The notes: generated by a model not told the origin, from the sequence alone. 64,000 bases of DNA from a bacterium (GCA_021796115.1 JAJYOP010000002.1:70842-134841); one strand, 5' to 3'; shown: positions 57,354 through 59,117, counted from the first letter of the stretch. Program-made: numbers and translations.

Positions 57354-59117
57354 ATGGAAAACAAATATTTTATTTATGCCAGGAAGTCAACGGAAAGTGA
57401 GGATAGGCAGATTTTAAGCATTGAGTCTCAGCTAAAAGAAGCAAACGACCTGGCCAAAAGGTATAATTTAAAAGTAATAGATATTTTAACCGAAGCCAAA
57501 TCTGCTAAAGCTCCAGGCAGGCCCATTTTTAACCAGATGATTGAAAGAATCAAAAAAGAAGAGGCTGTTGGAATTATTTGCTGGAAGCTCAATAGGCTTG
57601 CAAGGAATCCTGTAGATGGCGGACAAATCATTTGGTTGCTTCAACAAGGCATCATAAAGCATATTATCACTGCGGAAAGAAGTTATTATCCGGATGATAA
57701 CACTATACCGATAACGGTTGAATTCGGAATGGCTAATCAGTATGTGCGGGATCTAACCAGAGATACTAAAAGAGGTTTAAAAGCTAAATTAGAGAAAGGG
57801 TGGATACCTTGTATGCCTCCTTTAGGCTGGTTAAATAATCAAGGGCTAGATAAATCTGAAAATGCTATTATAAAAGACCCTGAACGCTTTCATCTCATAA
57901 GAAAAATGTGGGAGCTGATGTTAACAGGAATTCACACGCCCCCAAAGATACAGGAAATCGTAAACAACGAATGGGGATTTAGGACAAGAATATCAAAGCG
58001 GACAGGCGGTAAGCCTTTATCCCGAAGCGCCATTTATAAAATATTCACTAATCCCTTTTATTATGGAATGATTGAGTATAATGGAGAGCTTTGCTCTGGA
58101 AAGCATGAGCCTATGGTTACTAAAGAAGAATTTGATAGGGTACAGCTTCTGCTTGGCAGGAAAGGTAACCCCAGGCCAAAGACGCATACTTTTGCCTTCA
58201 CAGGAGAAATAAAATGCGCTGAATGTGGAGCATCTGTCACCGCAGAAGTGAAAACCAAAATATGCAAATCCGGAGAAATCCACTATTACATCTACTATCA
58301 TTGTACGAAAAGGAAAAAAGGTGTTAAATGCTCACAGCGTGCTATCAGAAGCGAAGACCTGGAACGTCAGATAAAAGAAATTTTATCAAAGCTTAATATC
58401 GATAATGATTTTTTGAATTTAGCTTTAAAATATCTAAGCAAAATACATGAAGATAAAATTAAAGACGAAAATACAATCAAGAAATCAATTGAAACAGCTC
58501 GTGAAGGCATTGAAAAACAACTTGATAATTTAACTGGCATACGGTTGAAGGGATTGATTGATGACCAGGAATATATACAACAGAAAAACAAGTTACTTAC
58601 AGAAAAGACACAGCTTGAAGAAAAACTAGGTAATACCGGATACAGGCAAGATAACTGGAAGGAATTATCAGAAAAAAGCTTTAATTTTGCTCATCATGCA
58701 CCATATTGGTTTGATAATGGCAGCTTAATTGATAAGAAAACAATTCTCCATACTATAGGTTCGAACTGTATACTTAAAGACAGAAAACTCTCTATTTCCT
58801 TAAAGAATCCCTGGTTAATCATCAAGGAGGGGTTGGAAAAGGTTGAGCAAGAAAAAAACAGGTTAGAACCATTGCAATCTATTGAAAACAAAGGAGAAAA
58901 TTCCTGTCACTCCCTCATAAATCCATATTGGCTGCCCGGTGAGGACTCGAACCTCAAAAAACAGACCCAAATTCTGCTGTGTTACCAATTACACTACCGG
59001 GCAAATTTAATTTTCAGGTTAATTACCCCCTCACTTCGTTTGGGGGCAATTCGGCTACGCATTTTTCCAGACAGGAAGTCTGGTAAAATGCTGCCTCATT
59101 GCACTACCGGGCAATGA
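57354..59117 (+). CDS. Large serine recombinase (resolvase + recombinase + zinc-ribbon + coiled-coil)
   Basis: YARKSTESEDRQ catalytic Ser motif and ICWKLNRLARN. Zn ribbon reads CAECG...YYHCTKRKKGVKC. GAGGGA RBS before the ATG at 57354. The last 60-odd codons read through antisense tRNA-Gln and a repeat element. Confidence 0.85.
   Translation: MENKYFIYARKSTESEDRQILSIESQLKEANDLAKRYNLKVIDILTEAKSAKAPGRPIFNQMIERIKKEEAVGIICWKLNRLARNPVDGGQIIWLLQQGIIKHIITAERSYYPDDNTIPITVEFGMANQYVRDLTRDTKRGLKAKLEKGWIPCMPPLGWLNNQGLDKSENAIIKDPERFHLIRKMWELMLTGIHTPPKIQEIVNNEWGFRTRISKRTGGKPLSRSAIYKIFTNPFYYGMIEYNGELCSGKHEPMVTKEEFDRVQLLLGRKGNPRPKTHTFAFTGEIKCAECGASVTAEVKTKICKSGEIHYYIYYHCTKRKKGVKCSQRAIRSEDLERQIKEILSKLNIDNDFLNLALKYLSKIHEDKIKDENTIKKSIETAREGIEKQLDNLTGIRLKGLIDDQEYIQQKNKLLTEKTQLEEKLGNTGYRQDNWKELSEKSFNFAHHAPYWFDNGSLIDKKTILHTIGSNCILKDRKLSISLKNPWLIIKEGLEKVEQEKNRLEPLQSIENKGENSCHSLINPYWLPGEDSNLKKQTQILLCYQLHYRANLIFRLITPSLRLGAIRLRIFPDRKSGKMLPHCTTGQ
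58929..59003 (-). tRNA. tRNA-Gln (anticodon UUG), CCA encoded
   Basis: Hand-folded 75-nt cloverleaf. Acceptor TGCCCGG/CCGGGCA with U1-A72 and G73 (the bacterial tRNA-Gln identity pattern). D stem GTGT/ACAC. Anticodon stem GCAGA/TCTGT with loop AUUUGGG. T arm TGAGG-TTCGAGT-CCTCA. Confidence 0.85.
59022..59092. repeat. Family-2 intergenic repeat copy directly upstream of tRNA-Gln
   Basis: attaccccctcacttcgtttgggggcaattcggctacgcatttttccagacaggaagtctggtaaaatgc. Contains two hairpins (ccccc/ggggg and ccagac/gtctgg) around the conserved AATTCG..CTA..CATTTTTCC. Confidence 0.8.
59098..59114. repeat. 17-bp duplicate of the tRNA-Gln 5' end (16/17 identical to 58988-59004)
   Basis: attGcactaccgggcaa versus attAcactaccgggcaa, 110 bp apart, in direct orientation. 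Confidence 0.85.

Follow-up and report, generated by a model that had tools for sequence, protein, structure and literature searches.

Regeneration of tRNA genes by the elements that integrate into them is textbook knowledge for the 3′ end of the gene, and several other kinds of small elements offer parallels to the locus considered here. Bacterial miniature inverted-repeat transposable elements (MITEs) with target-site duplications include Correia/CREE, RUP, and Nezha. The palindrome-associated elements derived from IS200/IS605 and the REP/RAYT elements are hairpin based, lack both target-site duplications and terminal inverted repeats, and lie in orientations independent of the neighboring genes. 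Free-standing homing-endonuclease cassettes that carry a replacement for the end of their host gene are represented by the GIY-YIG open reading frame (ORF) in Allomyces atp6, and small double-hairpin elements are found in the mitochondrial DNA of the same fungus. Integration that recombines with the 5′-distal part of a tRNA gene is likewise documented, being described in a passage of PMC6563490 (citing Zhao & Williams 2002) as “considerably less frequent,” and another passage of that source (citing Williams 2002 and She 2004) has tRNA genes accumulating overlapping integrations and remnants. Partial tRNA repeats serve as a standard landmark for integrated elements, and the tools that use them assume 3′ polarity and an integrase-bearing cargo. 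Here we analyze such a repeat at a tRNA-Gln(UUG) gene in a 64,000-nucleotide stretch of bacterial DNA (GCA_021796115.1, JAJYOP010000002.1:70842-134841), the whole of which is called the window below. In it, a 110-bp unit containing one copy of a dispersed two-hairpin element, termed family 2, is an insertion into the 5′ part of the tRNA-Gln gene.

Read in the sense of the tRNA, the locus consists of a TATAAT motif, an antisense family-2 copy (copy C), the 13-mer TTGCCCGGTAGTG, a further family-2 copy (copy A, starting with CAATGAG), a short tail, and then TTGCCCGGTAGTGTAATTGG followed by the remainder of the tRNA. The individual features are given below in window coordinates; L numbers denote the sequences used for comparison.

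58929 to 59003, minus strand: intact tRNA-Gln(UUG) gene with encoded CCA (ARAGORN; 56.7 bits with the Rfam tRNA model); its first 12 nt and the T at -1 (58992-59004) form repeat copy 1.
59005 to 59013, minus strand: tail between copy A and the tRNA, unconserved in the family; 9 nt past the covariance-model match, or 21 nt (59005-59025) when counted from the end of hairpin 2.
59014 to 59101, minus strand: copy A, with 5′ CAATGAG, the long hairpin 1, the linker TAGCCGAATTG, and hairpin 2 (CCCCC-AA-AC-GAA-GU-GA-GGGGG); 76.2 bits and an E value of 5e-14 with covariance model R1, together with covariation.
59102 to 59114, minus strand: stub, a remnant of the native tRNA-Gln 5′ end (-1 to +12, TTGCCCGGTAGTG) now separated from the gene, which, judged from L053 and L027, lies where the ancestral tRNA began with respect to the leader.
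59112 to 59199, plus strand: copy C, inverted, which forms the native tRNA leader; its 5′ CAA overlaps the TTG of the stub (R1, 73.9 bits).
59201 to 59206, minus strand: TATAAT, a -10-like motif just past the spoVG terminator and the presumed tRNA promoter; the form (a)atagTATAAT is conserved in the window, L022, L025, L027, and L028.
59219 to 59267, minus strand: terminator-like hairpin of spoVG (aggctaagg...ccttagcct) followed by a T run, recognized from the sequence and conserved in relatives.

An earlier note on this DNA had pointed to a pair of 17-mers, ATTACACTACCGGGCAA at 58988-59004 and ATTGCACTACCGGGCAA at 59098-59114, and both are found at exactly these positions. They are 16/17 identical and are the sole matches to each other in the 64 kb, also when up to 2 mismatches are permitted; 0.01 matches to the 17-mer would be expected by chance, and two or more matches were seen in 0 of 100 shuffles. 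The first copy corresponds to positions -1 to +16 of tRNA-Gln(UUG) in antisense. The note had taken all 17 bp as a duplication of the tRNA 5′ end, of which 13 nt are certain, with the last four bases of the second copy falling to the inserted element instead. The exact repeat is thus the 13-mer TTGCCCGGTAGTG (tRNA sense, -1 to +12) at 58992-59004 and 59102-59114. The bases at 59098-59101, which read CAAT in the tRNA sense, constitute the conserved 5′ end of the inserted element and pair with ATTG in its linker. Since the CAAT is the element's own end, only 13 nt can be counted as certainly tRNA derived, and the likeness of these four bases to the TAAT of the D loop is, as far as the alignment of the family indicates, a coincidence. 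Alternatively, the second copy may be a 17-nt one with a T13C change, at the price of one mutation. Between the two 13-mers lie 97 bp that hold no ORF of their own. The narrower 93-bp interval between the 17-mers does consist almost entirely of one family-2 copy, as the note had it (about 90%, from the covariance-model match at 59014-59101). We rejected two other readings of this region: the bases that might have made the stub longer than 17 nt, as the decayed remains of a D or anticodon arm, also occur in copy B of the family, which has no tRNA association, and a tRNA intron or split tRNA is at odds with the complete 5′ half that follows the insert.

The locus was also compared with relatives, in which the note had suggested looking for the absence of the 110-bp unit from the region upstream of tRNA-Gln. 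The unit is missing in L053, and no duplication is present in L030, L022, L028, or L026. In L053, the leader, itself an inverted family-2 copy, runs into an uninterrupted and intact tRNA-Gln; this leader together with the adjoining tRNA 5′ end matches the leader and stub of the window at 80 of 91 aligned positions, the leaders being 88% identical. The leader of L027 is of the same kind; at the window locus, the junction without the insert would read AGTCTCATTGCCCGGTAGTGTAATTGGTAAC. Given this empty site, the stub marks the ancestral start of the tRNA, to which 110 bp were added. The duplicated structure is no assembly artifact, since an independent Logan assembly (L110, run SRR13170412) is 100% identical to the window across 8,057 bp that include both repeat copies. 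The tRNA itself has remained intact, as had been claimed. The claimed displacement of its promoter by about 110 bp likewise agrees with the distances, in that the presumed TATAAT now lies ~197 nt from +1, compared with ~87 nt before. A consensus promoter scan called no minus-strand promoter at either the conserved TATAAT or any place within the insert.

The insertion belongs to a pattern that extends across the lineage. In the window, the minus-strand gene order is transketolase, ispE, a SpoVG-zinc-ribbon fusion, and then tRNA-Gln, the only tRNA in the 64 kb; the nearest homologs of this SpoVG are all from Candidatus Omnitrophota, and the order spoVG to tRNA-Gln is kept in ~70 related loci. 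Twelve of these ~70 loci have 5′ stubs upstream of the tRNA, and 10 have 3′ stubs downstream of it. The 5′ stubs, 13 to 54 nt long, are anchored at the tRNA +1 position, with identity reaching only 0 to 3 nt upstream of it in all 12, and their far ends fall at positions 12 to 18, 34 to 36, or 54, i.e., in the D, anticodon, or T loop. The 3′ stubs span positions 48-58 to 73/74. The cargo differs from locus to locus: it is a family-2 element in the window and in L025, and other hairpins or a GIY-YIG ORF elsewhere. In L025, the family-2 copy is flanked by a repeat of 18 to 19 nt, with a ~28-nt tail of non-family sequence before the second repeat. The GIY-YIG ORF (~90 amino acids; PF01541, E values of 1e-15 to 1e-16) follows position 36 of the tRNA in L027, L032, L033, and L080, and the same layout recurs in L119, at a tRNA-Gln(CUG) gene with other genomic surroundings. 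It ends in CPVV*, encoded by the tRNA-Gln 5′ end, an ending shared by at least 8 of the 120 homologs listed.

The locus L064 (L064:4466-4785) bears on the origin of the tRNA segments. In front of its A-type resident tRNA-Gln lie, in this order, a 34-nt stub of that gene, an insert, a B-type 5′ half of 33 nt, and a second, homologous insert, and the B-type tRNA-Gln is the resident gene in at least 15 other loci. The presence of this foreign-lineage half, as assigned by its sequence type, shows that the inserts at L064 brought a tRNA segment of their own. Such a half cannot arise by duplication of the target, and can be explained by a cassette that carries the segment of a previous host and recombines within the shared anticodon-loop bases. 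The arrangement indicates serial cassette insertions of horizontal origin. In the window, the two 13-mers are identical to each other and compatible with either origin.

On balance, we lean toward the view that the repeat is an att-like (attachment site-like), gene-regenerating identity block of a 5′-polar cassette, a mirror image of classical tRNA-gene integration. We infer that the 110 bp (58992-59101) entered tRNA-Gln as a single cassette, which would have comprised copy A, the short tail, and its own tRNA segment from -1 to +12. With the joint made within the D-loop region, the cassette-borne 5′ segment would have been fused to the resident remainder to give an intact tRNA, and the resident 5′ end would have been stranded toward the promoter as the 13-nt stub. 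Recombination or the repair of a break, using the tRNA sequence common to both partners, most likely copied the cassette in from a cassette-bearing allele, in a manner resembling homing. We favor copying because a 110-bp duplex is a poor substrate for circularization by an integrase and because the ORF-bearing cassettes of relatives encode a putative GIY-YIG nuclease. In break-initiated copying the recipient would keep its own leader, which would account for the end of identity at +1. Expression of the tRNA would then depend on read-through transcription starting at the conserved promoter, with the ~197-nt leader being removed by RNase P.

This proposal draws on several features shared with the integrative elements that target tRNA genes. 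As in those elements, the partial tRNA repeat extends exactly to the end of the gene (-1 to +12), one junction has an intact tRNA and the opposite one a displaced fragment, breakpoints lie in loops, relatives have empty sites, and occupancy can be serial or tandem (L064, L044). Unlike in classical tRNA integration, the polarity is the rare 5′ one, the cargo of ~97 bp is a dispersed structured repeat without an integrase, and the identity block measures merely 13 nt. An integrase of its own is the feature that the cassette lacks, given that its 97 bp hold no ORF and the neighboring serine recombinase belongs to a separate island on the 3′ side. Several further points weigh against our proposal. 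No recombinase or nuclease could be tied to the cassette, in whose vicinity the window, the 64 kb of the source genome to which our examination extended, revealed no GIY-YIG gene. A homology arm of 13 nt is very short for RecA-type repair, and a donor allele, with copy A, tail, and tRNA in the absence of the stub, was not present among the ~70 loci. Further, the left junction in the window, like that in L025, coincides precisely with the element's 5′ end, a hint of a step specific to the element end. Finally, these two inserts may share one event, which would leave a single example.

The cargo of the window cassette requires consideration in its own right. Family 2 is an element of ~88 nt that opens with YAATGAG at its 5′ end; a long and irregular hairpin 1 comes next, and the conserved linker TAGYSCGAAYTR joins it to hairpin 2, which is GA rich and variable. 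The covariance model R1, built from six of its copies, finds five copies in the window (A, B, C, D, and E) and others in L025, L027, L053, and L082. Orthologs of copy C adjoin tRNA-Gln in L027 and L053. The three window copies away from the tRNA, all found with R1, are the following.

25371 to 25459, plus strand: copy B, antisense to the 5′ region of an rpsF-like gene; without flanking duplication and absent from L030.
22343 to 22434, minus strand: copy D, starting with the TAA stop of an upstream dnaB-like ORF; 84% identical to the L025 insert.
26076 to 26159, minus strand: copy E, starting with the TAA stop of the upstream ORF; no counterpart was detected in L030.

Copies D and E open exactly on these stops (22432-22434 and 26157-26159), with TAATGAG and TAATGAA, respectively. 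Closest to copy A among the window copies is copy B, at 82% identity over 55 nt, and copy A with its tail has no identical counterpart elsewhere in the 64 kb. The pairing of hairpin 1 has strong support from covariation: in hairpin 1 and the closing YAAT-ATTR stem, 18 of 19 pairs vary on both sides. In the alignment, 93.5% of hairpin 1 cells are paired, compared with ~41% when the partners are slid by 1 to 3 columns, in a test whose alignment was fitted to, and so favors, the model, hairpin 2 not being part of the covariation model. Base 1 of the element, C or T, changes in concert with the final linker base, G or A, with five instances of each. Copies lie in mixed orientation relative to the adjacent genes, and because of this the sequence evidence fits a DNA-level repeat better than a cis-regulatory RNA.

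Among described elements, family 2 resembles the bacterial MITEs in being small, structured, dispersed, intergenic, and present or absent between relatives, and differs from them in lacking terminal inverted repeats and a duplication of fixed length at its other copies. With the IS200/IS605 and REP elements it shares hairpins, the lack of terminal inverted repeats and of a target-site duplication, and an orientation independent of genes. The covariation of the YAAT, whether taken as flanking or terminal, with ATTR (of YAA with the internal TTR) recalls the guide-target pairing of IS608 as a resemblance only, and can be assigned to target or element alike. Unlike for IS200/IS605 and REP/RAYT, no Y1 transposase, RAYT, or TnpB was found among the window ORFs examined. 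Copy A also matches the full model (1-88) of the Rfam family GA-cis (RF02987), with which it has in common two hairpins, tandem G/A internal-loop positions in hairpin 2, and a conserved CGA linker. Membership was rejected, since copy A reaches 29.3 bits against a gathering cutoff of 34.7; copies B, D, and E gave no match at an E value of ≤1 in a 4.1-kb scan, and the L025 copy gave none at the gathering threshold. A hairpin-pattern scan of a genome collection that does not include the source genome yielded mainly chance matches in unrelated taxa, plus one different repeat from the PVC group. In this repeat, from a metagenome-assembled genome, the 21-nt hairpin of copy A, CCCCCTCACTTCGTTCGGGGG, recurs in the context ...gagattgcttcgt[hairpin]cctcgcaatgac... 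(L002:5730-5750 and L014:536-556), and this hairpin is all that the repeat has in common with copy A.

The earlier note had interpreted the repeat as resembling the target-site duplication of a transposed element and, if so, family 2 as being, or having been, mobile. The second of these holds at least in the sense that the family looks mobile or polymorphic, with copies B and E missing from the orthologous intergenic regions of L030. The first is not supported, as long repeats are confined to the two tRNA-associated sites. Of nine family-2 sites, copy A has a flanking direct repeat of 13 nt and L025 one of 18 to 19 nt; the other copies, where the note had proposed to look for duplications (B, C, D, and E and those of L027, L053, and L082), have none above 7 nt, and the site of copy B is unoccupied in L030 and bears no duplication there either. 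None of the nine has terminal inverted repeats, the longest terminal inverted match being 4 to 6 nt. If family 2 had transposed into the D loop and a staggered cut had been filled in to give a duplication of 13 to 17 bp, one would understand why, in the window as in L025, the stub adjoins precisely the 5′ terminus of the element, and the dispersal and polymorphism of the family would fit as well. The seven sites with no such duplication speak against this scenario, as do the 9 to 21 nt of non-family sequence between copy A and the second repeat (~28 nt in L025), owing to which the duplication does not adjoin both ends of the element, and the unequal repeat lengths at the two sites. Moreover, unrelated cargo at the same tRNA yields +1-anchored duplications of 13 to 54 nt, and a repeat that always reaches the gene boundary on one side but varies on the opposite side is not what a staggered cut is expected to produce. 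We therefore regard transposition as quite improbable. Because unrelated cargo carries the same +1-anchored stubs and the other family copies lack long repeats, the duplication is, on this sequence evidence, to be ascribed to the tRNA-Gln target and not to family 2.

Three further explanations can be set against a gene-regenerating cassette. The unit could be the remnant of a larger integrase-bearing element that integrated 5′-polar into tRNA-Gln and later lost its interior; this accords with the gathering of overlapping integrations and remnants by tRNA genes, as stated in the passage of PMC6563490 cited above, and with the 27-kb serine-recombinase island at the 3′ end of the same tRNA. The cargo, however, is a complete dispersed repeat that occurs elsewhere without tRNA fragments and does not look like the arms of an element, and an insert on the 5′ side has to stay short if the promoter is to be kept, so that a large precursor would silence an essential tRNA. 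We likewise give this possibility a rather small chance. A one-off repair accident, in which a break in the D loop was mended by copying a family-2 element located elsewhere, with microhomology as the primer, before the template switched back to a point upstream of the tRNA, would dispense with a mobile cassette altogether. The match between the TAAT of the D loop and the 5′ YAAT of the element provides the microhomology, the repeat is short, and no donor allele was found, all of which favor this somewhat better, though still unlikely, account. It leaves unexplained the +1-anchored stubs with diverse cargo in 12 loci and the foreign half in L064, and the window offers as its closest potential template only the diverged copy B. 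Lastly, the recurrence of the 13- to 17-mer by chance, with no shared history, has the shortness of the repeat as its sole recommendation and is refuted by the shuffles and by the position of the stub at the orthologous site in L053 and L027, with the pattern recurring across loci; we consider its probability negligible.

We put forward a wider proposal only tentatively. The 110-bp unit could be an ORF-less member of an undescribed class of miniature cassettes that enter tRNA-Gln genes of Omnitrophota at their loops, coming from the 5′ side and each bringing a replacement 5′ segment, and that spread by nuclease-initiated, homing-like repair. Its autonomous relatives would be the GIY-YIG cassettes (~340 to 370 nt, ORF of ~90 amino acids), inserted after position 36 at both UUG and CUG genes. 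The Allomyces cassettes provide a parallel, in that the GIY-YIG ORF and duplicated gene end of the relatives likewise leave a displaced fragment, and small double-hairpin elements are associated. The present case differs from them in that the host gene is a bacterial tRNA, it is the 5′ end that is duplicated, the window cassette lacks an ORF, and the nuclease is predicted from sequence. Compared with the known integrations into tRNA genes, the present case stands out by a miniature cargo that has no integrase and is itself a dispersed structured repeat, and by phylum-wide recurrence at one tRNA on both sides. A tRNA-Gln that looks to be single copy collects, across a candidate phylum, tiny inserts without integrases on either side, and those on the 5′ side would force its expression through a long, structured, and partly tRNA-like leader. 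Should the cassette reading be true, it would describe a way for very small DNA to colonize an essential gene without killing it, provide a testable target for the widespread ~90-amino-acid GIY-YIG proteins, and offer a natural system in which to study the amount of 5′ leader that RNase P tolerates. Should the repeat be nothing more than a repair scar, it would be a curiosity of an ordinary kind.

The GIY-YIG cassettes themselves measure 340 to 370 nt and consist of two hairpins and the ORF, with an exact duplicate of positions 1-36 of tRNA-Gln(UUG or CUG). They were located at the following coordinates.

L027:799-1250, GIY-YIG cassette
L032:4506-4960, GIY-YIG cassette with its ORF at 4624-4896
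L033:4505-5000, GIY-YIG cassette
L080:535-1020, GIY-YIG cassette
L119:1376-1830, GIY-YIG cassette
L118:1330-1840, GIY-YIG cassette

Small CCC...GGG hairpin elements also occur after position 13 (D loop) of nonfunctional tRNA stubs (L033:4518-4565, L074:4445-4509, L096:623-688, and L118:~1351-1390). On the other side of the gene, short structured inserts flanked by repeats of the tRNA 3′ end (48-58 to 73/74) lie 100 to 185 bp downstream in L032, L034, L035, L036, L038, L044, L045, L071, L079, and L084; they form tandem arrays in L044, L071, and L079, and the L079 insert holds an inverted copy of the T arm. Viral contigs contained neither a match to the 25-nt 5′ part of the tRNA nor a relative of the serine recombinase; the 17-mer gave 7 matches, one to a real tRNA and the others apparently by chance in unrelated sequence.

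In the window, the 3′ end of tRNA-Gln adjoins an island of ~27 kb (roughly 31,897-58,928). The glmU and copper ATPase genes, which directly follow tRNA-Gln in L030 and L022, are found in the window at 27884-29131 and 29343-31616, and homology to the flank downstream of the tRNA in L028 is picked up again at ~31,896, from which the segment is recognized as an island. The edge nearest the tRNA encodes a large serine recombinase (Resolvase, Recombinase, and Zn_ribbon_recom domains) as well as a helix-turn-helix ORF, and the island also contains polysaccharide-export genes and an AbiE toxin-antitoxin pair. No long direct (att) repeat was detected for it and no displaced tRNA 3′ fragment was found in the window; the island appears to be independent of the 5′ cassette. 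The recombinase ORF (57339-59117, plus strand, 592 amino acids, with the TGA at 59115-59117 as its first stop) reads in antisense through the tRNA, copy A, and the stub, and a public gene call (587 amino acids, L110) includes this tail. The C terminus of the recombinase would differ in an excised form.

The window contains two further kinds of repeats. Two adjacent plus-strand ORFs share a 96-nt 3′ end of 93% identity (34854-34949 and 35344-35439) that encodes ...VPEPFSSALFLLGGGALALGAYRRR..., a PEP-CTERM-like sorting tail. A second repeat family is represented by 77-nt copies with 81% identity (61700-61776 and 63892-63968), along with a palindrome with 67-nt arms at 63859-63997.

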